Below are positions 3,974 to 19,604 of a stretch of DNA of 64,000 nt, piece after piece. Position numbers and translations under genes: made by a program. Source of the stretch: Candidatus Omnitrophota bacterium (lineage in GTDB: Bacteria > Omnitrophota > Gorgyraeia > Duberdicusellales > 4484-171); the NCBI GenBank assembly GCA_021735655.1, contig JAIPGM010000005.1, positions 32,001 through 96,000 of the forward strand. Direction: 5' to 3'. The notes below the pieces were generated by a model. The model was given only the letters and a program-made list of their open reading frames with translations. It searched no databases and had not been told where the DNA came from. Position 1 is the first letter of the stretch, and every line of letters begins with the position of its first letter.

Positions 3974-5191
3974 TTATCGTTTAAAAATTGCCATTAAATT
4001 CCACATTGGTAAAAATATTCCCAGAGCCATAAAAAGAACACCACAGCCTAAAACAAGTATCATTATCGGCTCAATCAAGGAACTAAAATTTTCAATTGTA
4101 TATTCAATCTGGCTATCGTAATAGTCAGAAACAAATAAAAGTAGTTCATCAACTCTACCGGAATCTTCACCTACTGCAACCATTTGAGTTACTACCGGAG
4201 CAAACATTCCACTCTTCTTCATTGGATTGGCAATTCCCTCTCCCTCATTGACCGAAGTCCGGATATCATTTATCGTCTTTTCAATCACTGCATTGCCTAT
4301 ACCACCGGAAGAAAGCTCCAAAACCCGCAAAATTGGCACGCCTGAATGCATCAGAGTGCCGGTGGCCCGGCAGAAACGAGACATATACATTTTCAAAAAT
4401 AACGGCCCAAAAACCGGAACCTTTAATTTAAATTTATCCCATAAAAATCGCCCGCCTTTCGTATTGATATATTTGTAAAAAGAAAAAATAACTATACCTA
4501 ACAAAATCCCGGTAAGCCACCAATATTGACTGACCGCAGTATTAATCCAAATAAGCACCCGGGTTGGTAAAGGTAAAACTATATTAGCCGCTGAGTAAAT
4601 CTTAACAAAACGAGGAATTACAAAAATGATCAGAATAAAAAAAGCAATCGCCATAGCGCAAACTACCATCATCGGATAACGAGTTGCGCTCTTAATCTGC
4701 ATCTTTATTTTTTCTTCATGGACTCCTAAGGCGCTTAAGCGCTCTAAGGATTCACCTAGGGTTCCACTTTCCTCAGCCGACTTAAGCATATTAGTATAAA
4801 GCGGACTGAAAACTTTCGGGTGTCTCTCAAGAGCGCTTGATAAGTCATTGCCCTCTCTTATTTCTCGAGACACCGCTTCTAAGGTTTTTTTAAAAAGTTT
4901 ATTACTAGTTTGATCACCGAGTGCCACTAGGCTTGAAAGAATAGTTACTCCAGCCCGTTGCAAAGTTGCAAACTGACGAGTAAACATATTAATTTCAGAA
5001 AGTTTAACCTTTTTAAACCGGCGTAACAACTCATTTAAAAAATTAGCTTCCTTACTCGACTCTTCTATAGTTACAGGCAAATAGTCCATTTCTTTAAGCT
5101 TATTAGCAACTGCATTTTCGGTTTCAGCTTCCATTGAACCGGTGACCAGCTTACCTTGTTTGTCGCGAGCCTTGTATTGAAATTCAGCCAT
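3974..5191 (-). CDS. pilC: Type IV pilus platform protein PilC (GspF family)
   Basis: 405 aa with two GspF-like repeats and three TM helices. It is adjacent to pilB and pilA. Confidence 0.85.
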   Translation of the reverse strand: MAEFQYKARDKQGKLVTGSMEAETENAVANKLKEMDYLPVTIEESSKEANFLNELLRRFKKVKLSEINMFTRQFATLQRAGVTILSSLVALGDQTSNKLFKKTLEAVSREIREGNDLSSALERHPKVFSPLYTNMLKSAEESGTLGESLERLSALGVHEEKIKMQIKSATRYPMMVVCAMAIAFFILIIFVIPRFVKIYSAANIVLPLPTRVLIWINTAVSQYWWLTGILLGIVIFSFYKYINTKGGRFLWDKFKLKVPVFGPLFLKMYMSRFCRATGTLMHSGVPILRVLELSSGGIGNAVIEKTINDIRTSVNEGEGIANPMKKSGMFAPVVTQMVAVGEDSGRVDELLLFVSDYYDSQIEYTIENFSSLIEPIMILVLGCGVLFMALGIFLPMWNLMAIFKR

Positions 5192-6864
5192 TACTTAACC
5201 TTGGTTACCTTTAATACTTCTTCCGCTGTAGTAATACCCTGACTTACCTTCTCTAAGCCGTCCTCGCTTAAGGTTTTTATCCAACCTGAGGCTACGGCCC
5301 TTTCTAATATCTTATCAGCTGATTGTTTTTCATTAACCATATTGCGTATCTCATCGTTAATAGTGAAAAACTCATAGATTCCAGTTCTTCCCATAAATCC
5401 AGTATTATCGCATTTTTTGCAACCCTTGCCACGATAAAATAAATTCTTGATTTTAACACCTAAATCTTTCAAAATAGACTCTGATGGTTTATACTCTTCT
5501 TTACACTTATCACAAATTACTCTCACTAATCTTTGAGCAATAACCCCAATAACCGAGCTAGAAACTAAAAACGGTTCAACCCCCATATCAACCAAACGGG
5601 TTAAAGATGATACAGCATCATTAGTGTGTAGTGTCGAAAGAACCAAATGTCCGGTAAGCGAAGCTCTAATTGCAATCTCAGCGGTTTCCTTATCACGAAT
5701 TTCACCAACCATAATCACATCCGGATCCTGACGCAAAATTGCTCGAAGACCTTCAGCAAAAGTAACACCAATTTTAGAATTTACCTGGGTCTGGCGTATT
5801 AAAGGCAATTCATATTCAACTGGATCCTCAATAGTAATAATATTTTTATCAATTGAATTAATAGTAGTTAGAGCTGCATAAAGAGTAGTAGTTTTTCCGC
5901 TTCCGGTAGGCCCAGTTACTAGAATAATTCCATTAGGCCGATGGATAAGTTTATTAAGTGCCTCTAGACTTTCATTAGATAAACCTAGATCTTTAAGCCC
6001 TAAAACAACTGACGACTTATCTAAAATTCTCATTACCACATTCTCTCCGTGAACTGTCGGAAAAGTTGAAACTCTGATGTCAATATCCCGATTTTCTATC
6101 TTTAAACGAATTTTTCCATCTTGGGGCCGGCGATTCTCAGCAATATCTAAATTAGCCAAAATTTTAATTCGCGAGGTTAAAGCTCGATTTAAGGCTTTGG
6201 GTAAATTGTGGGACTCACGGAGAACTCCATCAACTCGGTTGCGGACCAGTAAAGTTTTAGCTTCTGGTTCAATATGAATATCCGAAGCCCGTTCCTTCAC
6301 TGCCTTAGAAATAATTAAGCTAACCAATTTTACTACCGGAGCTTCTTCGGCAATTTCAGCTAAATCCTTATCGTCCTTGACTGAAATTCTTTCAGTATCG
6401 ATAGAATCAACGATTTCGTCAACTGTAGATGAACCACCATAATAGATATCTAAAATCTTTTGAATCCCGGTCTCAGAGGCTACAACCGGATCAATAGCAT
6501 CCATCTGGCTCATCTTACGAGCCTGATCCAAAGCTACTATGTCCTGAGGGTTAAACATAGCTACGGTTAAACTAGTACCAACCTTAAATAAAGGCACCAT
6601 TTTATATTTTTTAGCTAATTTTTCAGGAATTAACTTGGTTAATTCTGAATCAATAACGTATTCGCCTAAATCCATATAGGGCACACCTAAAGCTTTAGCC
6701 CTAACTTCAGCAATACTTTCCTCACTGATAAACTTTAACTTTTCCAAAGCCTTAATAATCGAAAGGCCAGTACGCCTGGTCTCGATCGTTGCCTGATCGA
6801 GCTGTTCCTGAGTAATCAAATTCTCTTTTAGTAATAAATCAGCTATCTCTTGTTTTTTAGCCAT
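5191..6864 (-). CDS. pilB: Type IV pilus assembly ATPase PilB (GspE family)
   Basis: GspE N-terminal domain, Walker A GPTGSGKTTTLYAAL and a tetracysteine motif CDKCKEEY...CKKCDNTG. A GGAGAG RBS lies upstream. The start overlaps the pilC stop. Confidence 0.9.
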   Translation of the reverse strand: MAKKQEIADLLLKENLITQEQLDQATIETRRTGLSIIKALEKLKFISEESIAEVRAKALGVPYMDLGEYVIDSELTKLIPEKLAKKYKMVPLFKVGTSLTVAMFNPQDIVALDQARKMSQMDAIDPVVASETGIQKILDIYYGGSSTVDEIVDSIDTERISVKDDKDLAEIAEEAPVVKLVSLIISKAVKERASDIHIEPEAKTLLVRNRVDGVLRESHNLPKALNRALTSRIKILANLDIAENRRPQDGKIRLKIENRDIDIRVSTFPTVHGENVVMRILDKSSVVLGLKDLGLSNESLEALNKLIHRPNGIILVTGPTGSGKTTTLYAALTTINSIDKNIITIEDPVEYELPLIRQTQVNSKIGVTFAEGLRAILRQDPDVIMVGEIRDKETAEIAIRASLTGHLVLSTLHTNDAVSSLTRLVDMGVEPFLVSSSVIGVIAQRLVRVICDKCKEEYKPSESILKDLGVKIKNLFYRGKGCKKCDNTGFMGRTGIYEFFTINDEIRNMVNEKQSADKILERAVASGWIKTLSEDGLEKVSQGITTAEEVLKVTKVK

Positions 6865-6884: not shown

Positions 6885-8216
6885 TTATCTACGTATCCTC
6901 AAATTCTTAGGAAGAGTGACTGTAAAAGTTGTCCCTTTGTTAATTTCAGAATCAACGAAGGTCTCTCCTCCGTGCATCTCAACAATATCCTTAACGATCG
7001 ATAAGCCCAAGCCGCTACCTTTAACTTTATCCTTAGAATACCCTTCGATTCTTTTGAATCGATCAAAAATTTTGTCTAAATCTTGCTTCGGCATACCAAT
7101 GCCAGTATCAGAAACGATAATCTTTACATTTTTTTCAGTATCTTCAAGTTTCAGGTTAATCTTACCCTTTGGTTTGTTATATTTTATAGCATTGTCGATA
7201 AAGTTTGAGATAACTTCATAAAGCTTATCTTCGTCCCCCCAAATTTCTATTTTTCTATTTGGCAAAGAAATCTTGATGTCGACTTCCTTTTTTTGGGCCA
7301 GCGGCCTAAGGGTTGCTACTGCTAATTCAGCTATCCTTCCTATATCAAAAAGGGTTCTTTTCATCTCCCTAGTTTCAGCATCTACTTTTGAAAAATCTAG
7401 CAAATCATCAATTAGGCGACTTAGACGACTAATGCTTTGAACCGCCAAGCTTAAAAGTTTTTTCTGCTGGCTATTAATATTTCCAGCTATTTCCTCTAGA
7501 ATAATCCCTACCGATTCTTTAATTGCCGTCAAGGGCGTGCGTAACTCATGAGATACATTAGCAATAAAATTGGCCCTTAGGTCATCTAAATGCTTTGTGT
7601 CTTCTCTGAGACGAGAATTAGTGACCGCTAAGGCAGCTAAATCGGCTAACTTGCTTAAAATATCAAGGTCTTCTTCATTGAAAACACCTTTAGAAATTTT
7701 ATTGTTAACATTTATCACCCCAATAACCTTATCTTGTATTTTTAAAGGAACGCTTAATAAAGAATTGGTATTATACTTCCCGTTACGTTTAGAAAAGCGC
7801 GGATCTTTGCTGATATCTTTAACTAATAAAGACTGCCCAGTTTGGGCAACCCAACCAGAAACGCCTTCACCTAGCTTAACTTTTACGTTCTTAATAATCT
7901 CTTTATCTAGACCTTTAGCAAACTTGATTAGCATCTCGCCGGTATTTTTTCCAACCAACATAAGTGAAACAATCCCAACTGACATTACATTAGCGATTCT
8001 ATCCACAAGCATATTAAGAGTTTTCTCTAAATTAAAATTACCGGATATTTCTTTACTAATATTATAAGCCATCGTTAATTTAAAAAGTTCTTTCTCTAAA
8101 AAATCTCGGTTTTCTTTACTTAAGCTACTCTTAAAATCTTTTAAATTAACTAAAGATTTAGTAACCTCTGTTATCGACTTCTTGCGCTTAAACAAACGTG
8201 CGACCGTATTAATCAT
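6885..8216 (-). CDS. Sensor histidine kinase with GAF domain (soluble)
   Basis: GAF-like N-terminal region, HisKA H-box HELRTPLTAIKES and HATPase G-boxes DTGIGMP / GSGLGLSIVK. No TM segments. Confidence 0.85.
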   Translation of the reverse strand: MINTVARLFKRKKSITEVTKSLVNLKDFKSSLSKENRDFLEKELFKLTMAYNISKEISGNFNLEKTLNMLVDRIANVMSVGIVSLMLVGKNTGEMLIKFAKGLDKEIIKNVKVKLGEGVSGWVAQTGQSLLVKDISKDPRFSKRNGKYNTNSLLSVPLKIQDKVIGVINVNNKISKGVFNEEDLDILSKLADLAALAVTNSRLREDTKHLDDLRANFIANVSHELRTPLTAIKESVGIILEEIAGNINSQQKKLLSLAVQSISRLSRLIDDLLDFSKVDAETREMKRTLFDIGRIAELAVATLRPLAQKKEVDIKISLPNRKIEIWGDEDKLYEVISNFIDNAIKYNKPKGKINLKLEDTEKNVKIIVSDTGIGMPKQDLDKIFDRFKRIEGYSKDKVKGSGLGLSIVKDIVEMHGGETFVDSEINKGTTFTVTLPKNLRIRR

Positions 8217-8638
8217 GCTTGTTCTCCAGTCAACTCTTTAATCTTATCTAGTAAAACCTTAGGCTCAAAAGGCTTAACTATATAAGCATCAGCCCCAACT
8301 TCTTGCCCCATTTTCTTATCACTATCTTGAGCCCGGGCCGTAAAAAGAATAATCGGTATGCTTTTATACTTTTCATCAAATTTAAGCATTCGGCAGACTT
8401 TATAACCATCAACCTTAGGAAGCATTAAGTCTAAAATAATTAAATCCGGATTACTCTTCTTTGCTTTGTCCAACGCCTCCTGGCCATCATAAGCAAATAG
8501 AACATCATAACCGCTAGCTTCTAGCCTCATCTTTAACATCTCAACCAACGCTGCTTCATCGTCAACTACGAGTATTTTTTTTGCCATCTTGCTCTCCCCT
8601 TTTAAATCCTGATAAATTAACTTTTGTTTTATTGACAA
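8213..8638 (-). CDS. Single-domain response regulator (CheY-like receiver only)
   Basis: KILVVDDE...DLIILDLMLPKVDGY...K receiver signature with no output domain. ATGA overlap with the upstream kinase. The true start may be the internal Met in MAKKILVV. Confidence 0.8.
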   Translation of the reverse strand: MSIKQKLIYQDLKGESKMAKKILVVDDEAALVEMLKMRLEASGYDVLFAYDGQEALDKAKKSNPDLIILDLMLPKVDGYKVCRMLKFDEKYKSIPIILFTARAQDSDKKMGQEVGADAYIVKPFEPKVLLDKIKELTGEQA

Positions 8639-9009
8639 TACTTATCTGCTACGCTTAAAACCTTATTTATATTTTTAACCTCTTGGGACAAATCTCCAGT
8701 TTTAACAATAAACCCCGAAGCACCCATATCTTTTGCTTTATCGAAAAGTTTCTGATCAGAATAAGCAGTTATAATGAATATCGGTAAATGCTTATCATGT
8801 TTTCTGATTTTTTTTAAGGTGTCTAGACCATTAAGCTTAGGCATTAATATATCAAGTAATACCACGTCCAGCCTTTCATTCTTTATCTTCTCTAAACCCT
8901 CCTTGCCATCAGAAGCAGTGATAACTTCATAATTATTCTCTTTTAGCCTCTGGCTAATCAGATCTAAAAAATCTGGTTCATCGTCCACAACCAATATCTT
9001 TTTTTTCAT
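8629..9009 (-). CDS. Single-domain response regulator (receiver only)
   Basis: MKKKILVVDDEPDF...VVLLDILMPKLNGLD receiver motifs. 126 aa. Confidence 0.85.
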   Translation of the reverse strand: MKKKILVVDDEPDFLDLISQRLKENNYEVITASDGKEGLEKIKNERLDVVLLDILMPKLNGLDTLKKIRKHDKHLPIFIITAYSDQKLFDKAKDMGASGFIVKTGDLSQEVKNINKVLSVADKYCQ

Positions 9010-9030
9010 CGAACACCTCGCTTTTGATTC

Positions 9031-9402
9031 CTAATCATCTTTCTTAATTTTCTTTAAAATACTTTCTATTTCTTCTTTAATATTACCATCTTTAACGATA
9101 AACCCGGTTGCCCCTGCTCTTTTAGCCTCTTCTTTTCGATTCTCGGTGGAAAAAGATGTCAACATAAATACTGGCAACTTCTTATGTTTATTTCTTATTA
9201 TCTCTAAAGCCGACATTCCGTCAAGTACCGGCATCAATATATCTAAAAAGACTATGTCAGGACTATCACTCTCTACCTTCTCTACTCCTTTCTGACCATT
9301 AACAGCGCTACATATCTCACAATTATTAGCCTCTAATCTAACTTTCATTATCTCCACGAAAACCGGATCATCATCAACAAGTAAAACTTTAAGTTTAGGC
9401 AT
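9031..9402 (-). CDS. Single-domain response regulator (receiver only)
   Basis: LKVLLVDDDPVF...IVFLDILMPVLDGMS receiver motifs. 123 aa. Confidence 0.85.
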   Translation of the reverse strand: MPKLKVLLVDDDPVFVEIMKVRLEANNCEICSAVNGQKGVEKVESDSPDIVFLDILMPVLDGMSALEIIRNKHKKLPVFMLTSFSTENRKEEAKRAGATGFIVKDGNIKEEIESILKKIKKDD

Positions 9403-9411
9403 AACTACCCC

Positions 9412-12400
9412 TTAACTCCTTCTTGCTTTATCGATTAAGTCAGCTTCACCTTTAGCATCATCGGGATAAGTTGATATCCTTACCCCGAAGGAAACCTTTT
9501 TAACTAATCGTTTTTTAATTAAATAACTATCCAAAGCCCTTCTTAGTCTTTCTTCTATCCTTAAGGCATTATACCTATTACAATCGGCAAGAGTAATTAT
9601 ATACTCCCCGACGACATCCCTAGTCACCAGTCTCCCTTGACCCTTAATAGCACTTTCAAGAATACTGCTAATTTCCTTTACGATTATTTTCATCTCCCTT
9701 AAAGATAACTCTTTATTTAACTCAATAAAATTATCAATATTTAGTATCACAAGCGACATTTTAATATTATCTCTAGCCGCATCCCTGATAGCATCCTTAA
9801 TAAACTCCTTAAATAAAGCATCACTATTATAATTAGGAAAAGTAAAAATAAATTTTGTTCCTTTGCCTTTTGAACTTTCAACCCAAATCCTTCCATTATG
9901 CAACGTAACAATCCCCTTAACAATAGATAAACCCAAGCCAGTTCCTTTTTCACCAGCTCCGACATCGCGCTCAAACTGCTGGAATTTATCGAATATCTTA
10001 GATAAATCACTCTTTGCAATACCTTTCCCGGTATCAACCACGCTACAAACAACCTCGTCATTCTTCGCCTCGATTACGATCTCAATGTAGCCTTTTTCGG
10101 TAAACTTAAAAGCATTATTAATCAAATTAACAAATATTTGAACAGCTTTATCCGAATCAAGATAAACCTCAAGTTTTTTTGTCGGAAGTTTAGTTTTAAT
10201 CTCAAGGCCTTTTTCTTTTGCCTTAAGCTCAAAAGATGAAACCACATCTTTTATTAATCTATTAATATTAATCAACTGCCTTTTAAGTATCACCTTTCCA
10301 GATTCAATTTTAGATATATCCAAAAGTTCATTTATAATCCGAGCTAACCGATCAATATTATTCTTAGAAGTAACAAGAATCCTTTCCTGTTTTTCATTAA
10401 TTTCACCCGGTATCTTATCTAAAATTAAACTTATCCCCTCCTTAGTGATAGATAAGGGAGTACGTAATTCATGAGATACGGTTGCGACAAAATTACTCTT
10501 TAAATCATCAAGTCTTTGAAGCTCGATATTTTTCTGCTCCATTTCTTCATAAAGCATCCTAATAGCTTCTTGATTCTTTTTCCGTTGAGTAATATCCTCG
10601 GCAACCTTAAGGTAATAGTTAACTTCACCGCTGTACTCTCTAATCGGTGATATCGAGGCTTGCTCCCAATAAAGCTGACCATTCTTTTTTTTATTATGGA
10701 ATTCACCTCGCCACTCTTTACCTGCAATAATAGTCTTCCATAAATCGCTATAACTATCCGAAGGCATATCTCCTGACTTTAAAACTCGAGGATTTTTTCC
10801 TAAAACTTCTTCCGATGAATAGCCGGTGAGCTGAGTAAACTTTGGATTTACATAAACAAGATTCCCTTTGACATCAGTAATTACCACCACACTCGGACTT
10901 TGCTCAACGGCACGTGATAATTTTTCCAATTCCTGTTGAGCAATTTTATGCTCAGTGATATTGCGGACTGTAGCCTGAAGGAGCTTCTTACCACTAATTT
11001 CCATAGCAGTTAAGAGAACTGTCGCGAAAAATTCTTCTCCTTTCATCGTTTTATGCTTCCACTCAAAAAAATGTGAGCCTTTATCAATTGCCATTTCCAT
11101 CATTTGTTTAGATTTGACAAAAGAAGAAAGTCCATCTGGTTGCTGTTCGGGCGATACCTCTGCCGGCCCCTTACTAATGAACCCTTCCTCGCTCTCGCAA
11201 GCGAATAATTCTAAAGTGGCCTTGTTGCAGCTCAAAAACTTTCCTTCACAATCTAATGTCATTATCGCATCGCGAGACGAATCGAAAAGAATTCGATATT
11301 TCTCTTCACTCATTCGCACTGCTTCTTCTACTTTTTTGCGCTCAGTGATATCTTCAAAAATTTCTAAAATTGCTTTCTTGCCCTTATAAACCATACCAGC
11401 ATACGTTATTTGAACTACTCGTCCACCAAGCACATCTCTACTTTCACAAGTCTCAATTCCCTCCACCCATACATCTTTCTTAAGCGGACAAAGATCACAT
11501 TGCTTTTTATTGTCTTTATAAGCCTCCCAGCACTTTCTCCCTTCAAGATCGTCGCCACAGGCATGCTTCAATATATTATTGGCAAAAATTATAGTTCCAT
11601 CTTCAGCAACAATATCTATCCCAAAAGGTATAGTAGCTAACAAAGCTTGGTTAAGTTCGTTAATTTTTACTAGCTCTCCCTCAGCTTTTTTACGCATGTC
11701 AATTTCTTTATTTAAATCACTTATAAAGGTAGTCGTATTTTTTAATTTATCGATCATCACATTAAAAGAGTCAGAAAATTGTTCAATTTCATCACCAGTA
11801 TTTATCTCCACTTTGAAATTTAAATTTCCCTCAGCAACCTTAGTTGTAGCTTCATGCAATATTGTTATCGGTTTTACAAAGATTCCGCTAAAAATAAATC
11901 CTAAACCGGCCAACACTATCAATAGAATAATAATAATAATAAGTGAATTAAAAATTAACCTATTTAAAGATTCAAACACCTCGGCTGATTCCTGATCTAT
12001 GCAAATTCTCCACGATAGCCCTCGCTCCAAAAGATTAGATTGCATAACTAAGGCATAAGCGACAAACATTCTCTTTCCTTGAATTTTAGATTTATCTATC
12101 ATCATCCATTGATTCTTATTTTCTAATAGTTTACCTAAATCTTTAGTGCTGAAAAATTTAGCAGTTAGCGGTTTAAATTCAGGATGGTATAGAATGTTGG
12201 CTTCTTGATCAATTAAGACAGCATGGCCAGTTTTTCCGATTTTAAAATTTTCTAAAGCTGAAAAAAAACGTTTTATGTCTAATACGGCCTTACAGACACC
12301 TATCACTTCTCCGGAGCCTCTGATCGGGACCGCTAGAGATATCCCTAAAACATTACTTGATTCATCATAGTTAGCGCCCTCAATGTAAACCTTACCTTCA

Positions 12401-12939
12401 CCGTTATTAAACGCCTCTTGCCACCACTGCTCATCTGCCTGGTAAAAGTCAGTAGTCTTACCTGACGCGGCGACTAAACCTCCAAATCTATCAGTTACGA
12501 ATATTTCACTTAAACTGTTATCGACATCTTTTACTCTAGTTAATCGCTTACTTACTGGACTTTCTAAATATCTTTTAACCAATAAGTTATCTTCGGAATC
12601 GCTAATCCATTCCTCATCCCGGCTTTTAAAATAAGCTCGAATAGCATCCTGATCCATACCTTCATAGTTCAAATTATGCCTTTTAATCTCATCTATACGC
12701 AGAGGATGCGACATGTATATATCTATATCTAAAATTTCCTCATCAATAATCCTAGCCATTGCTGCGCTGAGTAGCTGTGCCATATCGCGATAATCTTCAC
12801 CAATATTATTCCGCAACAGATTAGCTGCCCAAAAATATCCTAAGCTAAGGACTACCGACGCAAAAATAACGAGACACAAACAAATCATTAAGGTAATCTT
12901 GCGTCTAATACCGGTTTTATGTTTTATTTCTTGTTGCAT
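9412..12939 (-). CDS. Large hybrid sensor kinase: TM, periplasmic Cache-like domain, TM, HAMP, three PAS-like segments, HisKA-HATPase, C-terminal degenerate GGDEF-like domain
   Basis: Two TM helices flank an extracytoplasmic region of about 290 aa. H-box HELRTPLSITKEG and G-box GTGLGLSIVKGIVTLHNGRIWVES are present. The C-terminal 165 aa (LVILNIDNFIELN...RDVVGEYIITL...VSFGVRISTYPDD...ADLIDKA) resembles a GGDEF fold with the motif degraded to VGEY. Confidence 0.8.
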   Translation of the reverse strand: MQQEIKHKTGIRRKITLMICLCLVIFASVVLSLGYFWAANLLRNNIGEDYRDMAQLLSAAMARIIDEEILDIDIYMSHPLRIDEIKRHNLNYEGMDQDAIRAYFKSRDEEWISDSEDNLLVKRYLESPVSKRLTRVKDVDNSLSEIFVTDRFGGLVAASGKTTDFYQADEQWWQEAFNNGEGKVYIEGANYDESSNVLGISLAVPIRGSGEVIGVCKAVLDIKRFFSALENFKIGKTGHAVLIDQEANILYHPEFKPLTAKFFSTKDLGKLLENKNQWMMIDKSKIQGKRMFVAYALVMQSNLLERGLSWRICIDQESAEVFESLNRLIFNSLIIIIILLIVLAGLGFIFSGIFVKPITILHEATTKVAEGNLNFKVEINTGDEIEQFSDSFNVMIDKLKNTTTFISDLNKEIDMRKKAEGELVKINELNQALLATIPFGIDIVAEDGTIIFANNILKHACGDDLEGRKCWEAYKDNKKQCDLCPLKKDVWVEGIETCESRDVLGGRVVQITYAGMVYKGKKAILEIFEDITERKKVEEAVRMSEEKYRILFDSSRDAIMTLDCEGKFLSCNKATLELFACESEEGFISKGPAEVSPEQQPDGLSSFVKSKQMMEMAIDKGSHFFEWKHKTMKGEEFFATVLLTAMEISGKKLLQATVRNITEHKIAQQELEKLSRAVEQSPSVVVITDVKGNLVYVNPKFTQLTGYSSEEVLGKNPRVLKSGDMPSDSYSDLWKTIIAGKEWRGEFHNKKKNGQLYWEQASISPIREYSGEVNYYLKVAEDITQRKKNQEAIRMLYEEMEQKNIELQRLDDLKSNFVATVSHELRTPLSITKEGISLILDKIPGEINEKQERILVTSKNNIDRLARIINELLDISKIESGKVILKRQLININRLIKDVVSSFELKAKEKGLEIKTKLPTKKLEVYLDSDKAVQIFVNLINNAFKFTEKGYIEIVIEAKNDEVVCSVVDTGKGIAKSDLSKIFDKFQQFERDVGAGEKGTGLGLSIVKGIVTLHNGRIWVESSKGKGTKFIFTFPNYNSDALFKEFIKDAIRDAARDNIKMSLVILNIDNFIELNKELSLREMKIIVKEISSILESAIKGQGRLVTRDVVGEYIITLADCNRYNALRIEERLRRALDSYLIKKRLVKKVSFGVRISTYPDDAKGEADLIDKARRS

Positions 12940-13007
12940 TTTCTATTAAGTATTTTAGGTAAGTTTCTTGTATTTATCAGTTTATCATCCTGCCGAAAAA
13001 TTACAAG

Positions 13008-13024
13008 ATGATATTACAATATCA
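13008..13024. promoter_or_regulatory. Palindrome TGATATT-AC-AATATCA upstream of the hybrid kinase gene
   Basis: Perfect 7-bp arms with a 2-bp spacer in the 127-bp intergenic region, 70 nt upstream of the kinase ATG. Confidence 0.3.
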
Positions 13025-13066
13025 TATATCTAGAAAGGATAAATTAAGAAAAAGGAAGGTATATCT

Positions 13067-13720
13067 TTAGAAAGAAACTTTCAGCTTTGTCCCAAAAATA
13101 TGCAAATCATTCCACTTATCGCTCTTTTCGGTAGTTTCCCAAAGATAGTAGACTTCACCTTTTAGGTTTTTGATGATTTTAAGACCAAATCCGCCATAGA
13201 ACCGGTTGCGGTTTAAAGTTTCAACATCAAAATCATAAAAAATCTCATCAGCTATATAAGGCTGAATCTCTAGTTTGGTAAGCTTAAACGGAGCTTTTAT
13301 GCTAAACTTATTACGATAACGCCAATAATTATCAGCATCCTCACGATTTCGATATTCTAAGCGGCCACGATTGCTAAAGGCCAAATCAAATAATTTCCAT
13401 TTTAGATCAGCATTTAGGTGAGGTCGGTTCTCTACCTTCCAATCGCTACTTTTATCTTCATGAATATGCCGATAGTTTACACCGAGATCTAACCAACTAA
13501 CCAAGCCAGAATAAGTTACTCCTAGATCTGAATGATTATAGTAAGGATTATTAGCATTATCGCCCCAGCGGAACTCTTCTTCAAACGATAGTTTCCAATC
13601 ATCATTAATCTTTTTAGATACGTTCGAAGTATTCCAATATTGAAAGTCGCCATCATCAAAAGAAAAGGAACAAAAAGGAAATAATGCAATCGCAATAGTT
13701 AAAACAATTAACTTTCTCAT
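13067..13720 (-). CDS. Predicted outer-membrane beta-barrel protein (DUF2490-like)
   Basis: Signal peptide MRKLIVLTIAIALFPFCSF (start taken at the internal Met). Alternating amphipathic strands rich in Tyr, Trp and Asn. C-terminal ...KLKVSF ends with the aromatic residue typical of OMP barrels. Confidence 0.5.
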   Translation of the reverse strand: MRKLIVLTIAIALFPFCSFSFDDGDFQYWNTSNVSKKINDDWKLSFEEEFRWGDNANNPYYNHSDLGVTYSGLVSWLDLGVNYRHIHEDKSSDWKVENRPHLNADLKWKLFDLAFSNRGRLEYRNREDADNYWRYRNKFSIKAPFKLTKLEIQPYIADEIFYDFDVETLNRNRFYGGFGLKIIKNLKGEVYYLWETTEKSDKWNDLHIFGTKLKVSF

Positions 13721-13780
13721 AGAAAAATAATATACATCACGAAACAAAACTGTCAACAATAAAGTATATAAAGTTGTCTG

Positions 13781-15307
13781 TTAAACGGGTAGAGTAAATA
13801 TAAAACGGGAGCCTTTTCCTTCACCCTTAGAACTAGCCTCTATTTTTCCCTTATGTTCCTGAATGATATCTTTACAAATTGCAAGGCCCAGCCCAGTTCC
13901 TTCAACTTTTCCGCTTCTGGCTGGTTTAATTTGCTCAAAGGAATGAAAAAGTTTTGGAATATCATTTTTCTTTATACCGATTCCGGTATCAAAAACTTCA
14001 ACTTCGATACTATTGTCTATTTTTCTGGTAACTACAATAACTTCGCCTTTTTTGGTAAATTTAATCGCATTACTGACTAAGTTGCTGATAACTTGACTAA
14101 TCCGATCCTTATCAAACCTTGGCTTAGGTAAATCCTGACCAAGCTTTAAGCTAAACTGCAAACCTTTACGCTCAGCCAAAGGTTGCATTATTTCATAAAC
14201 ATCCCTGACAACCTCATTGACATCGTCCTCTTTAAGCCTAAGCTCCATCTTGCCGGCTTCCAGCTTTTGAAATTCTAAAACATCATTAATCAAACGAGCT
14301 AGACGATTAACGTTCTTTTTGGCCATCGAGAGAAGGTTCTTTTGCTCAGTGTTTGTATCTCCGGCCAACCCATCGAAAACTATACTAATGCTGGTTTTAA
14401 TTGCCGCCAAAGGTGTCCGCAGCTCATGAGAAACCATTGAAGTTAGTTTTGACTTATATTCCACAGCCTCGCGTAACTTTTCTTCAACTCTTTTACGTTC
14501 GCTAATCTCTTTTTTAAGTTCAAGAGTACGCTCATCGACTAATTCTTCAAGATGATCCTGATATTTCTTTAACTCATCGGTCATCGTATTAAACAAAGAA
14601 GCCAAATCGCCGATCTCGTCATTGCCCTTGACCTCGGTATGACGTCCAAATTCCTTATGAGAAATAATATATCTAATAGCTCCCAACAGCTTCGAAATCG
14701 GAACAATAACAATCCTAGAAAGGCTCTGATAAAATAAAAATATACAAAAACCTAAGGCTAACAGTAAAACCAAAAGGTTTTGAGCCCGCATTTTTCTTAT
14801 TTTACTATTTATAATTTCTTGTTTTATCCCAACATTGATCGTCCCGATAACCTCTTCGAACCAAGGAATTGGAATAATTGACTCATAATACTTACCAATA
14901 ACCAAAGTCCTCCGTTGGGAAGTTTTTAACGGATAGAGGTCACCGTATTTACCTTTGTCATAAATACTACTAAAAAAAGGAGATTTAGCATGGTATAAAA
15001 TCTTTCCATCCCGATCAGCAATAAAGCAATAATCAATGCCTTCATTTGCAAATAAAACACTCTGCAAATATTCATCCATACCCGAAAATTCATCGAGCGA
15101 AAAATAACGTAAATTATTGTGTACAGTCCGACGCAAAGCCTTACCAACCGCATAAGATTTTTCCTCCAAGGCTTCTTTATAAGCTACTTTAAAAGAAAAA
15201 ATGGTAATCAATGAATTAGCAGCTACCGCTACAACAATAACTAAAAGAATAACCGAAAATAGCTTGGTTTTGACACTTATATATTTCTTCTCTGATTTTT
15301 TATTCAT
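13781..15307 (-). CDS. Membrane sensor histidine kinase (periplasmic loop, HAMP, HisKA, HATPase)
   Basis: Two TM segments. H-box HELRTPLAAIKTS and G-boxes DTGIGI / GTGLGLAICK. 4-nt overlap with the upstream binding-protein gene. Confidence 0.85.
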   Translation of the reverse strand: MNKKSEKKYISVKTKLFSVILLVIVVAVAANSLITIFSFKVAYKEALEEKSYAVGKALRRTVHNNLRYFSLDEFSGMDEYLQSVLFANEGIDYCFIADRDGKILYHAKSPFFSSIYDKGKYGDLYPLKTSQRRTLVIGKYYESIIPIPWFEEVIGTINVGIKQEIINSKIRKMRAQNLLVLLLALGFCIFLFYQSLSRIVIVPISKLLGAIRYIISHKEFGRHTEVKGNDEIGDLASLFNTMTDELKKYQDHLEELVDERTLELKKEISERKRVEEKLREAVEYKSKLTSMVSHELRTPLAAIKTSISIVFDGLAGDTNTEQKNLLSMAKKNVNRLARLINDVLEFQKLEAGKMELRLKEDDVNEVVRDVYEIMQPLAERKGLQFSLKLGQDLPKPRFDKDRISQVISNLVSNAIKFTKKGEVIVVTRKIDNSIEVEVFDTGIGIKKNDIPKLFHSFEQIKPARSGKVEGTGLGLAICKDIIQEHKGKIEASSKGEGKGSRFIFTLPV

Positions 15308-16398
15308 TTAACTATATTTTCTCCGGACATTTCTATATATTCAACCGGAACTTTAATTCCGAACTCCTCAGCTTTACGCAAATCAAAAGCAAAACCATTA
15401 TTCTTCGGCCATTCTGGATATATCTCTTTGATTGATCTACCTTCGAATAGCTCTTTAATCATTCTGGCAGCTTGGTGGCCCATGCTTCGGTTAGAAGGAT
15501 ATACAACCATAGTCGCTCCCCAGCCTTGCATAACCGACTCCTTTCCTAGACCAATCAAAGGCTTAGTCGCGTTTTCATAAACCATACGACAAAAATACTC
15601 CTGCACCCCCATCTGATCATTAGGGGCCAAGAAAACATCAACTATCGGATCAAGTTCTAAAACAAACCTCTTAGCTGCTTCAGCCATATATTTGCTTCCT
15701 TTTTCGCCAACAACTAAAGGCACTGAACGAAAAATAATCTTAAAATTCTTAAACTCAAGATTAGTTTTAAAAAGCTCCTCGGCCCACTTACGATAACTCC
15801 TTGACTGAGGCATATCAGCATAAATAAGACCAATAATTTTTGCCTTAGGCATTAACTCTTTGATAAATTCAAAACGGGTCGCAACTCTTAGAGGGTAATG
15901 GACTCCGGTAAAATTATACTTAGGCGGCGCATCAAAATCTTCAATTACTCCAATTCCAACTGGATCGGTATTAGCAGCAAAAACAGCTACTTGATCCTTG
16001 CCTAAAAGTACATTTTTAGCAGCAACGGTCATCACTGTACCATTAATAAAAATAATATCATAATTGTTCGGTAACTGTTCCTTGAGAATCGCCTCGCCTT
16101 TTTTTATATCATTTTCAATGACAAAGTAAGCCAGGCTTAAATTGCCCCCTTCTCGATAACCCCAATAACTGAGACGTTCAAGCATAGCTTCCCTTACCTC
16201 TTTATAGGGCTCTCCGGTTTGAGAATCCAAAATAAGCAGTTTAAAATTTCGGGAAGAATTTTTAGCCACCGCTGGCTGATTCTCGGTAAATAGTGCGGTT
16301 TCCTCAACTCGATCAGAATTAGTACAGGAAATAATTAGGCCTAGGCAAACAAAAATAAACGACCTTAATAATAAATTTAAAAAATTAACACCTTTCAT
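15304..16398 (-). CDS. Periplasmic substrate-binding protein of the ABC_sub_bind (PF04392-like) family, probable lipoprotein
   Basis: Start taken at the internal Met (MKGVNFLNLLLRSFIFVCLGLIISC) because it gives a lipoprotein-type signal. The ORF-track start at 16503 is less likely. The VAVFAANTDPVGIGV region is typical of this family. It is coupled to the downstream kinase. Confidence 0.6.
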   Translation of the reverse strand: MKGVNFLNLLLRSFIFVCLGLIISCTNSDRVEETALFTENQPAVAKNSSRNFKLLILDSQTGEPYKEVREAMLERLSYWGYREGGNLSLAYFVIENDIKKGEAILKEQLPNNYDIIFINGTVMTVAAKNVLLGKDQVAVFAANTDPVGIGVIEDFDAPPKYNFTGVHYPLRVATRFEFIKELMPKAKIIGLIYADMPQSRSYRKWAEELFKTNLEFKNFKIIFRSVPLVVGEKGSKYMAEAAKRFVLELDPIVDVFLAPNDQMGVQEYFCRMVYENATKPLIGLGKESVMQGWGATMVVYPSNRSMGHQAARMIKELFEGRSIKEIYPEWPKNNGFAFDLRKAEEFGIKVPVEYIEMSGENIVK

Positions 16399-16512
16399 CT
16401 TATGGTGATATTTTACCATAAACCATAAGACACAAAAACAAAAAATCCCCACCTTTTTTAAGGTGGGGATAGCTTGCTTAATTGTTCCTTCAGCCCAATT
16501 CAAGGACTAAGG

Positions 16513-17688
16513 TTATTTCCCTAAGTTAATCGCTCTGACCTTTACAACACCTTCAATCTTAGAAAGAGCTTTTATAGTCTCCTCCTTAGGTTCATCTGAA
16601 GCATCGATAATCGTACAAGCATAGCCGGCTTTACTCTTATTTAACATCTCAACGATATTAATATTGGCTTTAGCTAAAATCGTTGAAACCTGACCAACCA
16701 TATTCGGAATATCTTTATTCATAACTATCAACCGGTGACTAGAATTTTGCTCTAATTTACAGTCAGGAAAATTAACTGAATTCTTAATAACCCCCCGCTC
16801 AATGAAATTACGCAACTGCTTAACAACCATTACTGCGCAATTAGTTTCGGCCTCTTGGGTTGAAGCACCAAGATGAGGTATGGCTATTACCTTATCCATG
16901 TTAAGTAGTTCATCATCAGGAAAATCAGTTACATATCTCTCAACTATACCGTCTTTGATTGCTTTAGCTAAATCATCATTGTTTACTATTCCACCACGGG
17001 AAAGATTTAAAATCCTGACACCTTTTTTCATCCGAGAAAACTTCTCACTATCAACCATTCCTTTAGTTGCATCAGTCAAAGGCGTGTGCAGCGAAATATA
17101 ATCTGCTTCAGCCATAAGTGCATCTAAACCATTAGCTCGTTTTACCTGTCTTGAAAGACCCCAAGCCGACTCAACCGAGATAAACGGATCATAGCCAACA
17201 ACCTCCATACCCAAATCTAAAGCAGCATTGGCCACCATAACCCCGATTTTACCTAAGCCAACAATACCGAGAGTTTTGCCCATAATCTCAAAACCGGCAA
17301 AATCTTTCTTATTCTTTTCTACCGAGGTCGGAACTTCAGTTCCCTTTCCCTTAAGTGATTCAGAAAAGGCAATACCCTTAGAGATATCCCTTGAAGCTAG
17401 CAGCAATCCGGCTATAGTCAACTCTTTTACGGCGTTAGCATTGGCTCCCGGAGTATTAAAAACAACCACCCCTCTTTCTGAGCACTTATCAATCGAAATA
17501 TTGTTGGTTCCGGCTCCAGCCCGACCCACCGCAAGAAGAGATTTCGGTAACTCCATATCATGCATCTTAAAGCTTCGGAGGATTATTGCTTCGGGATTAG
17601 TAACTTCAGTACCAATCTCATATTGATCAAGCGGAAAAAGGGCTAAGCCCTCTGTTGAAATTTTATCTAGTTTCATTACCTTATACAT
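16513..17688 (-). CDS. serA: D-3-phosphoglycerate dehydrogenase (2-hydroxyacid dehydrogenase fold with C-terminal ACT domain)
   Basis: NAD-binding GLGKIGVMVANAA motif. The catalytic region and a C-terminal ACT-like domain are present. Start reassigned to the second ATG of AAGGAGGATATGATG, where the strong RBS lies, instead of the ORF-track start at 17778 that would overlap serC by 70 nt. Confidence 0.8.
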   Translation of the reverse strand: MYKVMKLDKISTEGLALFPLDQYEIGTEVTNPEAIILRSFKMHDMELPKSLLAVGRAGAGTNNISIDKCSERGVVVFNTPGANANAVKELTIAGLLLASRDISKGIAFSESLKGKGTEVPTSVEKNKKDFAGFEIMGKTLGIVGLGKIGVMVANAALDLGMEVVGYDPFISVESAWGLSRQVKRANGLDALMAEADYISLHTPLTDATKGMVDSEKFSRMKKGVRILNLSRGGIVNNDDLAKAIKDGIVERYVTDFPDDELLNMDKVIAIPHLGASTQEAETNCAVMVVKQLRNFIERGVIKNSVNFPDCKLEQNSSHRLIVMNKDIPNMVGQVSTILAKANINIVEMLNKSKAGYACTIIDASDEPKEETIKALSKIEGVVKVRAINLGK

Positions 17689-17707
17689 CATATCCTCCTT
17701 TAGTTGC

Positions 17708-18790
17708 TTATCGGTTTGTTTTTTCGAATTCTTCCATAAGTTCAACAAGTTTTTTAACCCCTTCAACCGGCATGGCATTGTAAATACTAGCTCGCATGCC
17801 GCCGACAGTACGGTGTCCTTTCAAAGTCTTAAAACCTTTAGCTGAAGCCTCCTCGATGAATTTCGCATCTAGCTCCTTATTCCCGGTAACAAAAGGGACA
17901 TTCATCAAAGAACGGTTTTCTTTTTTAACCGGACTGCTGAAAAGTTTTGACTGATCTAAATAGCTATAGAGAATTTCTGCTTTTTCACGATTGAGCTTTT
18001 CGATTGCCGCCAGTCCTCCTTTTCCCTTAATCCAGGCAAAAACTAACCCGGCTATATAGATTGAATAGCAGGGCGGTGTATTGAACATCGAACCGGCGTC
18101 AAGATGAGTTTTGTAATTAAGCATCGCCGGAATACTGTCTGGAGCCTGGCCTACTAAATCTTCACGGATGATAACCAAGGTAACACCGGCTGGTCCGATA
18201 TTTTTCTGAGCTCCGGCAAAGATAACTCCAAATTTTGAAACATCAATTGGCTCAGACAAAATATTAGAAGACATATCGGCGATTAAAGGAACTGCCCCTG
18301 TATTAGGGATCTTTTCATAAACTGTTCCGTAAATCGTATTGTTAGTTGCGATATAGAAATAGTCAGCGTCTTTAGAAAAATCATCAGAATTAAGTTCCGG
18401 GATATAAGTAAAATTCTTATCTTCGGAACTGGCAACAACCTTAACCGCCCCCTGTTTCTTAGCTTCGGCTATTGCTTTCTTGGTCCATTGGCCGGTATGC
18501 ACATAGTCGGCTTTTTTATTTTTGACCATTAAGTTCAAGGGAATCATCGAGAACTGTAAACTTGCCCCGCCTTGCAAAAACAAAACCTTATAGTTATCCG
18601 GAATAGCCATGATTTCTCGTAGGGTAGCTTCGGCCGTCTCGATAATACCTTTAAACTCCTTGCCGCGATGAGAAAGTTCCATTACACTCATACCACTTCC
18701 TTGATAATTAAACATCTCTGCGGCAGCTTTCTTCAAAACTTCCTCTGGCAAAACTGCTGGTCCAGCACTAAAATTGTATACCCTCTCCAT
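17708..18790 (-). CDS. serC: Phosphoserine aminotransferase
   Basis: 360 aa. N-terminus MERVYNFSAGPAVLPEEVL and the PLP-binding region are typical of SerC. RBS AAAGGGGGG. The start lies 2 nt after the rex stop. Confidence 0.85.
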   Translation of the reverse strand: MERVYNFSAGPAVLPEEVLKKAAAEMFNYQGSGMSVMELSHRGKEFKGIIETAEATLREIMAIPDNYKVLFLQGGASLQFSMIPLNLMVKNKKADYVHTGQWTKKAIAEAKKQGAVKVVASSEDKNFTYIPELNSDDFSKDADYFYIATNNTIYGTVYEKIPNTGAVPLIADMSSNILSEPIDVSKFGVIFAGAQKNIGPAGVTLVIIREDLVGQAPDSIPAMLNYKTHLDAGSMFNTPPCYSIYIAGLVFAWIKGKGGLAAIEKLNREKAEILYSYLDQSKLFSSPVKKENRSLMNVPFVTGNKELDAKFIEEASAKGFKTLKGHRTVGGMRASIYNAMPVEGVKKLVELMEEFEKTNR

Positions 18791-18792
18791 GG

Positions 18793-19410
18793 TTACCCCC
18801 CTTTAAGTGATGCGGCAACAAACCGCAAAGCATTAGTAAAATCCATATCTAAATACATAATATTTTCTGGCACTATAATTTTAATCGCTGAAAAATTTAA
18901 AATACCACGCACCCCGGCTTTGATTAACTTATCGGCTACGGCCTGAGCTGAGCCTGCCGGAACAGCGATTATTGCCAACTCAATGTTTCGCTGTTTAATA
19001 ATACTTTCTAATTGGTTATCGCCAAAAACATCGATAGCAGTGCGAATTCTTTCAATCTTATTAATACTGCAATCAAACCCAGCCACAATTTCAAATCCAT
19101 CCTCCTGAAACTTTTCATAATCTAGGAGAGCGCTCCCGAGACGTCCCAAGCCAACAATACAGGCCTTGCGCTTCTGATTTAAATTAAGCTTACGCCCCAA
19201 CTCTTGCTTTAAACCGCTAACTTCGTAGCCTTTTCGAGTGTAACCGGTAAGGCCTAAAGAGCTAATATCTTTACGCACCGTATATTCAGTAGCACCAATA
19301 GCTTTAGCCAGATTCAGAGAAGATACAAAATCAACTCCTTGCTTTTCTAAGGTGTTTAAATATCCAAAAATCTTACAAATTCGCTCAAGACTATTATCTG
19401 ATAAACTCAT
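18793..19410 (-). CDS. rex: Redox-sensing transcriptional repressor Rex
   Basis: 205 aa. N-terminal winged helix is followed by a Rossmann domain with CIVGLGRLGSAL. There are two Rex-box-like inverted repeats upstream. Confidence 0.8.
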   Translation of the reverse strand: MSLSDNSLERICKIFGYLNTLEKQGVDFVSSLNLAKAIGATEYTVRKDISSLGLTGYTRKGYEVSGLKQELGRKLNLNQKRKACIVGLGRLGSALLDYEKFQEDGFEIVAGFDCSINKIERIRTAIDVFGDNQLESIIKQRNIELAIIAVPAGSAQAVADKLIKAGVRGILNFSAIKIIVPENIMYLDMDFTNALRFVAASLKGG

Positions 19411-19431
19411 ATATGTTCCTTAACCTTATTT

Positions 19432-19449
19432 AAGTGAAATAATTCACTA
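19432..19449. promoter_or_regulatory. Rex-box-like operator (AAGTGAA-ATAA-TTCACTA)
   Basis: Matches the Rex consensus TTGTGAA-N4-TTCACAA at 11 of 14 half-site positions. It lies 22 nt upstream of the rex ATG. Confidence 0.5.
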
Positions 19450-19564
19450 TTATAGCTAATTTATACCCTATATTACCCTGAATGTCAAGATATTTTATGG
19501 TATTTTTTAGGCTAACTAATAAATGTATATTTTTCAATCGATTATCAGTATGATTCCTATAATA

Positions 19565-19583
19565 TTAGTGAAATTTTTCACCC
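19565..19583. promoter_or_regulatory. Second Rex-box-like operator (TAGTGAA-ATTT-TTCACCC)
   Basis: Same GTGAA-N4-TTCAC core, about 155 nt upstream of rex. Confidence 0.45.
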
Positions 19584-19604
19584 CATTATCAAAAAAAGGG
19601 GCGA

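Follow-up and report, generated by a model that had tools for sequence, protein, structure and literature searches.

Why should three sensor kinases and three stand-alone receivers be packed directly against the pilus genes of an uncultured bacterium? This question is raised by a 64,000-nucleotide stretch of DNA from Candidatus Omnitrophota bacterium (GenBank assembly GCA_021735655.1, contig JAIPGM010000005.1, positions 32,001 to 96,000 of the forward strand), here called the window. Ahead of pilB, pilC and pilin genes it encodes a 1175-aa membrane kinase ending in a degenerate GGDEF-fold domain (kinase-dGGDEF), two receivers of one class (REC_A1 and REC_A2), one of another class (REC_B) and two smaller kinases. 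We propose, with a probability of roughly 0.55, that this cluster is a type IV pilus control module, that is, a branched, multi-input two-component network without a transcription-factor output, in which the output receiver would act on the pilus motor. A signalling network controlling the type IV pilus had already been suggested in a first-pass annotation made from the sequence alone, and the conserved gene order and the linkage to pilB described below support that suggestion. At first sight the cluster is an ordinary two-component system; its distinction is the conserved core of kinase-dGGDEF, REC_B and pilB, which recurs beyond a single phylum. Omnitrophota are uncultured bacteria, most of them ultra-small, and are suspected to be predatory or host-dependent; a conserved sensor-to-motor module whose testable parts are one kinase, one 124-aa receiver and PilB offers an entry into the control of their surface fibres.

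The pilus link of the signalling cluster is strong. Nine homologous loci from other Omnitrophota contigs were compared, with kinases 27-54% identical to the window kinase, and in eight of them the kinase is followed by two to four receivers and pil genes (Table 1). Seven (L002/L003, L004, L005, L087, L088 and L089) share the order kinase-dGGDEF, three or four stand-alone receivers, pilB; pilM is visible in these pilB loci where the contig extends far enough, and only 0-28 nt separate the last signalling gene from pilB, so that the cluster is not separate from the pil genes in relatives; separation was what the first-pass annotation had said would weaken its model. A metagenome scan with the degenerate GGDEF tail returned 80 loci. 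A stand-alone receiver starts within 500 nt of the kinase stop in 60 of the 67 with enough sequence, and pilB lies within 3 kb in 14 of the 28 that have at least 3 kb downstream (12 of 25 after removal of near-duplicates). Among generic receiver loci serving as controls, a PilB/PilC-like gene was found within 10 kb in 0 of 45 (Fisher p about 1e-7); these controls are the loci of a REC_B-pattern scan whose patterns (K[RK]IL[VI]VDDE and P[DN]LI[IL]LDLM) are generic, most of the 80 loci recovered being ordinary OmpR-type regulators.

One receiver class, REC_B, rather than all three receivers equally, is the conserved partner. In every pil-linked Omnitrophota array one receiver, most often the last, shares 64-80% identity with the window REC_B; the class signature is DGYKVCRMLKFDEKYKxIPII, and in 17 of 26 metagenome loci the receiver directly ahead of pilB is a REC_B. 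The dimerization and histidine phosphotransfer (DHp) signature of the window kinase is HELRTPLSITKEGISLILD, which marks a subfamily usually followed by REC_B and pilB: where the signature reads HELRTPLSITKEGISL(V/I)LD, the window kinase included, REC_B is present in 16 of 20 loci and pilB in 16 of 20, and in nine loci of this subfamily, which have the minimal order kinase-dGGDEF, REC_B, pilB, REC_B is the sole receiver. When species-representative genomes were searched with REC_B, the best matches outside Omnitrophota lay in the same context. In a Thermodesulfobacteriota metagenome-assembled genome (L009), a REC-HisKA-HATPase-dGGDEF protein (69 bits to the hidden Markov model of the tail) precedes REC_B, pilC, pilins, pilMN and a secretin. 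The KSB1 contig L010 encodes a kinase together with REC_B and pilB, and kinase-dGGDEF occurs with REC_B on the Syntrophobacteria contig L013. In several Gastranaerophilales loci the tail match of the kinase is weak, and REC_B is accompanied by an MshEN protein of 460 aa whose ATPase domain is shortened. As read from these sequences, the minimal recurring unit is kinase-dGGDEF, REC_B and pilB, present also in Thermodesulfobacteriota and, in a weaker and divergent version, in Gastranaerophilales. The simplest reading is that kinase-dGGDEF and REC_B would be a cognate pair forming the core of the module, with the REC_A receivers, the GAF kinase, the sCache kinase and a chemotaxis-type (Che) system in L089 as accessories.

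The kinase at the head of this core has the Pfam order dCache_1, HAMP, three PAS, HisKA, HATPase_c and GGDEF, so that the Cache-like periplasmic sensor, the PAS modules and the GGDEF-like end that had been predicted for it are all borne out by domain searches. The dCache_1 match scores 72 bits (Pfam cut-off 45) and is placed in the periplasm because it is bracketed by hydrophobic segments at aa 11-42 and 321-361; this domain provides a handle for finding the signal that the cells sense. A database entry named from a Candidatus Omnitrophica metagenome-assembled genome matches the kinase with 100% identity, and the named homologues of the kinase are nearly all from Omnitrophota. The kinase was also tried as a hybrid histidine kinase, as it had first been annotated, and rejected, since Pfam finds neither Response_reg nor Hpt and the GGDEF fold comes after HATPase_c. 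All three window kinases have SHELRTPL (at aa 822, 222 and 293 for the 1175-aa, GAF and sCache kinases, respectively), N, G1 and G2 boxes, and HExxT beside the His, a motif associated with phosphatase activity in HisKA kinases. Judged by motif, both these kinases and the receivers described below are catalytically intact. At the DHp helix positions the GAF and sCache kinases differ from the signature of the 1175-aa kinase. As a separate observation, the first PAS-like module (window 11446-11559, minus strand, aa 461-498) contains a Cys motif, C470-x10-C481-x2-C484 (GRKCWEAYKDNKKQCDLCP), which may be a metal or redox-sensing site. P0002, the closest homologue, retains this motif (GKKCWEVYRDNKKQCNACP), and P0005 does so in part.

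Each of the three receivers matches Response_reg only (Pfam E-values 1e-26 to 1e-30), in agreement with the earlier description of three receiver-only proteins in a row with no DNA-binding output, and all three keep the acidic pair DD, the phospho-acceptor Asp, the Thr and the Lys; loss of that Asp had been named as a further result that would weaken the model. REC_A1 is 61% identical to the first receiver of L004, and REC_A2 is 68% identical to the receiver behind a paralogous kinase in an exopolysaccharide locus (L006). REC_A is the looser class, marked by 'GFIVK[DT]G' and the absence of Lys-Pro. For the third receiver, REC_B, the start is most likely ATG 8587 (MAKKIL, as in orthologues) and not TTG 8638.

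In the working that we propose, the 1175-aa kinase would read a periplasmic ligand through dCache and cytoplasmic cues through its three PAS modules, autophosphorylate on His823 and hand the phosphate to REC_B. Phosphorylated REC_B, free of any output domain, would then contact PilB (possibly its MshEN N-domain) or PilC/PilM and tune pilus extension. The REC_A pair may act as sinks or modulators that compete for the phosphate of this kinase, or may carry a parallel signal; a phosphate-sink role for the extra receivers is plausible. The GAF kinase and the lipoprotein-coupled sCache kinase, being receiver-less, would act on this pool of receivers as kinase or phosphatase and in this way provide extra inputs, and the dead GGDEF tail would serve as a structural, regulatory or docking domain.

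The layout of the locus is consistent with one long string of genes. Guanine-plus-cytosine (GC) content of the window is low (about 35-40%), and the minus strand holds every gene from 1 to 29 kb. In transcription order the signalling and pilus string consists of an ABC_sub_bind lipoprotein, the sCache kinase, a DUF2490 protein, the 1175-aa kinase, the three receivers, the GAF kinase and pilB-pilC-pilins-pilM. No terminator-like site was flagged at the gene junctions from 16445 to the window start, the minus-strand sites there sitting within coding sequences. The hairpin at the upstream edge closes an upstream serA-like unit and is the only convincing site in terminator and sigma-70 promoter scans that are overall at chance level. 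pilB starts 20 nt past the stop of the GAF kinase and is preceded by the ribosome-binding site GGAGAG, which upholds the reported contiguity with pilB and corrects the gap, given as 22 nt. The annotated GAF kinase (6885-8216) is found to be GAF-HisKA-HATPase_c, and the GAF and 1175-aa kinases do flank the receivers as described, with a third kinase (13781-15307) having been overlooked. The annotated span, which runs to 16503, also holds the sCache kinase, DUF2490 and the ABC_sub_bind lipoprotein, which its title left out, and the open reading frame end at 16503 is an artefact, since the hairpin falls inside that frame. Rfam and tRNA scans of the window gave no matches. The Pfam-type scans covered the main open reading frames of at least about 110-120 aa, leaving out shorter ones and those nested in larger ones; among these scanned frames of the 64-kb window there is no CheA, methyl-accepting chemotaxis protein (MCP) or CheW, no sigma-54 activator (Sigma54_activat) or DNA-binding response regulator, and no GGDEF, EAL or HD-GYP enzyme of cyclic di-GMP (c-di-GMP) turnover. 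The statement that neither CheA nor a PilR-type enhancer-binding protein is present was therefore correct within that scope.

Table 1. Features of the signalling and pilus string in the window, and gene order after the kinase in homologous loci (TM, transmembrane segment)
Feature	Positions	Strand	Basis and details
Intrinsic terminator-like hairpin	16445-16470	-	Terminator scan; 11-bp stem + T run; upstream edge of signalling/pilus string
ABC_sub_bind (PF04392) periplasmic lipoprotein	15304-16398	-	Pfam; lipobox LIISC, hydrophobic segment aa 4-27 from Met 16398
Third sensor kinase (sCache kinase)	13781-15307	-	Pfam; TM, periplasmic sCache_3_2, TM, HAMP, HisKA (H294), HATPase_c
DUF2490 protein	13067-13759	-	Pfam; N-terminal hydrophobic segment
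1175-aa membrane sensor kinase	9412-12939	-	Pfam, motif reading; phospho-His 823
Periplasmic dCache_1 sensor of 1175-aa kinase	12046-12639	-	Pfam, hydrophobic segments; aa 101-298
Three cytoplasmic PAS-type modules of 1175-aa kinase	10570-11652	-	Pfam; aa about 430-790
HisKA + HATPase_c core of 1175-aa kinase	9832-10500	-	Pfam, motifs; H, N, G1, G2 boxes intact
Degenerate GGDEF-fold domain of 1175-aa kinase	9415-9819	-	Pfam, AlphaFold, Foldseek; aa 1041-1175, C-terminal
REC_A1 stand-alone receiver	9031-9402	-	Pfam; D54, T82, K104; 'GFIVKDG', no Lys-Pro
REC_A2 stand-alone receiver	8629-9009	-	Pfam; D53, T81, K103
REC_B stand-alone receiver, 124 aa	8213-8587	-	Pfam; D53, T83, K105-P106; signature DGYKVCRMLKFDEKYKSIPII
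Soluble GAF-HisKA-HATPase_c kinase	6885-8216	-	Pfam; H223
PilB/GspE-type assembly ATPase, N-terminal MshEN	5191-6864	-	Pfam; MshEN + T2SSE
PilC platform protein	3974-5191	-	Pfam; T2SSF
Major pilin	3592-3969	-	Pfam; N_methyl
Three pilin-like/minor pilin genes	2730-3500, 1966-2733, 1376-1972	-	
PilM-like protein, runs off window start	1-1135	-	phmmer matches to PilM_2 genes of related loci
L002/L003: 3 receivers, 315-aa kinase, pilB-pilC-pilins-pilMN			
L004, L005: 4 receivers, pilB-pilC-pilins-pilMN-pilO, one small gene, GAF kinase			
L087: 3 receivers, pilB			
L088: 4 receivers, pilB-pilC			
L089: 4 receivers, pilB-pilC			
L001: 2 receivers, pilins, pilMNO, secretin			
L006, paralogous dCache-PAS kinase: REC_A-type receiver, TPR proteins, cellulose-synthase-like glycosyltransferase, REC_B-like receiver (52%), GH8 hydrolase	10001-20502		

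The genes upstream of the 1175-aa kinase are not conserved, except for DUF2490, and the ABC_sub_bind/sCache pair is therefore a lineage-specific addition. The lipoprotein, which probably starts at Met 16398 and continues into the lipobox, has no counterpart in the relatives examined and is accessory. Its gene runs 4 nt into that of the sCache kinase. This overlap makes it a probable ligand-presenting partner of that kinase and points to a kinase that depends on a binding protein and lacks its own receiver. An AT-rich gap of 127 nt separates the DUF2490 gene from that of the 1175-aa kinase, and the DUF2490 family also occurs directly upstream of the large kinase in L005 (9148-9822, 52% identity). 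At the corresponding position in L002/L003 there is an OprB porin (L002 8593-9840); an outer-membrane channel encoded at this place may let in the ligand that dCache senses. In L004 and L005 the GAF kinase is retained but stands at the distal end of the pil operon; over the GAF region the window kinase has 52% identity to that of L004.

Several points weigh against a pilus control module that works through REC_B. The target PilB is inferred from adjacency and from the absence of an output domain; REC_B is by sequence an ordinary PhoB/OmpR/PleD-type receiver that belongs to no specific curated family, and a PDB sequence search places it, in a way that is not diagnostic, among PhoP/YycF/PleD-type receivers. 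NCBIfam gives no specific family for any receiver or kinase of the cluster, all matches being under the cut-offs. Neither PilT nor a secretin is encoded in the window. Moreover, about half of the kinase-dGGDEF loci have no pil genes nearby, the downstream genes looking housekeeping-like by eye; L008 couples kinase-dGGDEF and REC_B to an ABC transporter; and in L007 an orphan REC_B (72% identical) adjoins a hexokinase gene. The fibre could also serve secretion or adhesion rather than motility, since its ATPase reaches the NCBIfam cut-off for GspE and not that for PilB. Finally, a DNA-binding regulator or PilR could be encoded elsewhere in the genome, because only 64 kb of it is visible.

This last point leads to the alternative that survives best, although we consider it unlikely: the true output of the kinases would be an unlinked DNA-binding response regulator, and the three receivers would only buffer phosphate flux. 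Receivers without output domains fit such a role, and phosphate-sink receivers are an established device in chemotaxis-type pathways. A sigma-54 activator is encoded in a REC_B-containing pil cluster of Neomarinimicrobiota (L025). There is also a precedent in cyanobacterial Tax1, which is reported to act through two antagonistic response regulators. However, REC_B is the sole receiver between the kinase and pilB in many loci, where a sink with no primary acceptor nearby would be odd, and it is far more conserved than the sensor parts of the kinase, which suits an output that binds a partner. In addition, the sigma-54 promoter pattern TGGCAC-N5-TTGCW (up to 2 mismatches), which is itself at chance level, has no minus-strand match at or upstream of any pil or signalling gene, and the pilin gene, trailing pilC by only 4 nt, has no room for a promoter of its own.

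A second alternative, which we regard as rather improbable, is that the fibre is a type II secretion or prey-attachment apparatus and that the network times secretion or attachment in the predatory or parasitic life that has been proposed for the phylum. It concerns the output process and not the signalling logic, and its probability overlaps that of the pilus control module, so that the figures assigned to the different readings do not sum to 1. The window ATPase scores 635.5 against the NCBIfam cut-off of 630.25 for GspE and 615 against that of 675.65 for PilB, and the lack of PilT in the window points the same way, as does the description of Omnitrophota as predatory, with type II secretion system-like loci beside giant genes (bioRxiv 10.1101/2023.11.21.568195). 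On the other hand, the MshEN N-domain of the ATPase is typical of PilB/MshE, and the window holds the machinery of a type IVa pilus, with PilB, PilC, an N-methylation prepilin and a PilM-like protein. PilM_2, PilN and PilO, the hallmarks of type IVa systems as opposed to GspL/M, occur when the window and its relatives are taken together. A type IVa pilus is favoured by the PilM-like gene of the window, by PilM/N/O in relatives and by the secretins encoded in L001 and L009.

The remaining substantial alternative is close to what the first-pass annotation had in mind, namely that a hybrid kinase passes phosphate through the three receivers, as a phosphorelay or sink, and that the GGDEF-like domain is a c-di-GMP receptor gating the kinase. 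We find this improbable, and its two halves can be considered in turn. The extra receivers could indeed be sinks. However, a phosphorelay (His-Asp-His-Asp) cannot be drawn because the kinase has neither receiver nor histidine phosphotransfer (HPt) domain and the cluster has no HPt gene: Pfam finds no Hpt match in any cluster protein, and the genes are too closely packed to conceal one, with intergenic gaps of at most 127 nt and no unassigned open reading frame left.

The GGDEF fold itself is real. The tail (aa 1041-1173) matches Pfam GGDEF with 32.4 bits (gathering cut-off 23.8), its AlphaFold model has a predicted local distance difference test score of 86.9 (22-sequence alignment), and the best 50 Foldseek matches listed against the PDB are all GGDEF domains (template modelling scores about 0.63-0.77, 10-21% identity). 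The active site (A-site), which in an active diguanylate cyclase reads GG[DE]EF, is VVGEY in the window kinase, with the guanine-binding Asp replaced, and the tail is thus predicted to be catalytically dead, as the earlier description of a degenerate and probably non-catalytic domain had it. For c-di-GMP binding at the inhibitory site (I-site), we looked for the primary RxxD five residues upstream of the A-site and for a secondary Arg about 31 residues downstream. The window tail has KGQGR at the primary position (Arg to Gly, Asp to Arg); the secondary Arg is kept (R1131) and the last helix is truncated.

The family to which the tail belongs gives a different picture. An exhaustive HMMER search with the tail alone matched 984 representative proteins with a threshold of E <= 1e-3 and 119 with one of E <= 1e-10. 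Of 199 matched stretches, 154 finish no more than 20 residues short of the C-terminus, and the host proteins vary widely in length. In an alignment of 162 representatives, later 242 with metagenome copies, the A-site consensus is (D)TGE(I/L/V), the first metal-binding Asp is mostly Ser, the last helix is shortened, and two motifs, 'L(A)DC.K' and 'TYP(D/E)(D/E)A', are conserved specifically in this family. The inhibitory-site position is conserved as LRRxGD, with the Asp present in 218 of 242 members, [RK]xxD in 161 of 242 and the secondary Arg in 225 of 242. This pattern reads as the signature of an A-site-dead, I-site-intact receptor, and most members have a tail that resembles a nucleotide receptor of the I-site type. 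The kinase SgmT shows the same pattern: its I-site RHPD binds c-di-GMP, and R763A abolishes binding (PMC3509222). The window tail is among the roughly 10% of the family that lack the I-site Asp; P0002 keeps RRSGD at this position. A c-di-GMP receptor domain was therefore a reasonable proposal for the tail family and not for the window protein, in which the loss of RxxD makes I-site binding unlikely. Ancestrally the dead tail was probably the c-di-GMP sensor of the kinase, and with the I-site lost a structural, autoregulatory/regulatory or docking role is more likely in the window. From the similarity of REC_B to the first receiver of PleD, it is speculation that the tail may dock a receiver as in REC-GGDEF proteins.

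The ATPase was examined for a second c-di-GMP site with the MshE-type motif model NF053729 of NCBIfam (cut-off 38 bits). PilB of L002, L004, L005, L088 and L089 passes with 39.9-57.4 bits, that is, five of the six Omnitrophota orthologues tested, and so does that of the KSB1 locus L010 (59.9), which speaks for the c-di-GMP half of this alternative; L087 (35.9) and L012 (26.9) fail. The window PilB also falls under the cut-off, at 34.5 bits, which, together with KGQGR in the kinase and the lack of any GGDEF, EAL or HD-GYP enzyme among the scanned frames of the window, counts against c-di-GMP gating here. The coincidence of a lost kinase I-site with a weak MshEN motif in PilB was seen across seven loci and is no more than suggestive. 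Two side observations concern these topics. The Omnitrophota contig with the orphan REC_B (L007) encodes a 7TM-PAS-HD-GYP protein (14489-16633), a candidate c-di-GMP phosphodiesterase, and at least some Omnitrophota would therefore have c-di-GMP turnover. In Gastranaerophilales and uncultured bacteria related to them (L011, L012, L014, L016, L018 and L021-L023; about 10370-11770 of the 20-kb loci), the Walker A of the 460-aa MshEN protein that follows REC_B is unusual (GSxLSGKT), and the match to the ATPase profile is confined to its first 216 positions out of 370.

That an independent signalling operon merely happens to abut the pil operon would accommodate the kinase-dGGDEF loci without pil genes and the other contexts of L007 and L008, and is nevertheless highly improbable given linkage in 14 of 28 loci against 0 of 45 controls, an order that is kept even where the kinases share only 27-54% identity and that recurs in other phyla, and such short gaps to pilB.

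Returning to the pilus control module, a wider version of it can be put forward tentatively, as a possibility that we hold well short of even odds. Kinase-dGGDEF and REC_B would be an undescribed multi-phylum pair (Omnitrophota, Thermodesulfobacteriota, probably Syntrophobacteria and, in divergent form, Gastranaerophilales) that controls a PilB-type motor ATPase directly and in a phosphorylation-dependent manner. Its ancestral form would have had a double c-di-GMP input, through the kinase I-site and the MshEN domain of PilB; Omnitrophota would have elaborated it with up to four receivers and extra kinases or Che proteins, perhaps steering pili to prey or hosts, and the window lineage would have lost both c-di-GMP sites. 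A histidine kinase with a dead GGDEF tail that is nearly always followed by a stand-alone receiver would represent an unexplored coupling of phosphotransfer and c-di-GMP signalling, and natural tail variants, some having the I-site and others lacking it, can be compared.

Comparison with described systems shows that the window cluster is a member of none of the Pil-Chp/Tax, EmvR/DrdR, SgmT or PilS/PilR systems. The closest mechanistic precedent for REC_B is provided by two output-less receivers of Xanthomonas that act on PilB: EmvR binds PilB and represses its ATPase, with input from the classical kinase ColS (PMC11973254), and DrdR binds PilB and PilT and raises the activity of both (PMC13507683). 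These are, however, described as orphan response regulators with no GGDEF-tailed kinase reported, and they share at least the generic receiver fold with REC_B. Pil-Chp of Pseudomonas (PilG/PilH/ChpA) and the Tax/Pix systems (PixG/PixH/PixL) likewise control a type IV pilus through several CheY-like receivers without DNA-binding output, but use a CheA-type kinase with MCP and CheW, whereas the window has HisKA kinases with their own sensors and no PATAN domain. In Tax1 a single kinase is reported to phosphorylate both antagonistic response regulators, and PATAN response regulators of cyanobacteria are reported to interact with the pilus motor (PMC11181946, bioRxiv 10.1101/2021.06.11.447907), which gives further precedents for receivers of this kind acting on the motor. 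Membership in a Pil-Chp/Che-type system was rejected for lack of CheA, MCP and CheW among the scanned window frames; a complete Che cluster does adjoin the module in L089 (827-9958), where CheR-TPR, two CheW, a dCache MCP, CheA-REC, CheY, CheB, a receiver and a small kinase lie directly upstream of kinase-dGGDEF.

Like the window cluster, SgmT/DigR of Myxococcus xanthus has a kinase that ends in a dead GGDEF domain and is linked to behaviour depending on pili, and it includes a GAF sensor. SgmT is a true hybrid (GAF-HK-REC-GGDEF), cytoplasmic, and acts via the DNA-binding DigR; its c-di-GMP-binding I-site localises the kinase (PMC3509222). The window kinase, in contrast, has no fused receiver, its GGDEF domain directly follows the ATPase domain and has lost the I-site, the GAF domain belongs to another kinase, and its partners are receivers without an output domain, encoded beside pilB. 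PilS/PilR is likewise a two-component system encoded with pil genes, PilR being a sigma-54 enhancer-binding protein that controls pilin transcription; membership was rejected, there being no NtrC-type activator among the scanned frames and no sigma-54 match upstream of the pil or signalling genes. Full-text literature searches, with subscription journals outside their scope, returned no description of the module in Omnitrophota or elsewhere.

Further observations concern genes outside the core. In L006 no GGDEF-like tail was detected on the paralogous kinase, and the same receiver classes may also serve an exopolysaccharide machine there. Elsewhere on the minus strand of the window, positions 31018-34819 hold a tandem pair of 617-638-aa proteins with C-terminal GH130 domains (mannoside phosphorylase) and long unannotated N-terminal halves, adjoining a mannose-6-phosphate isomerase-like cupin gene. 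A PIF1-like helicase gene (40497-41762) lies between open reading frames without a family match, and an autotransporter beta-domain protein (61722-63470) is encoded in a locally GC-richer segment (0.465 versus about 0.37).

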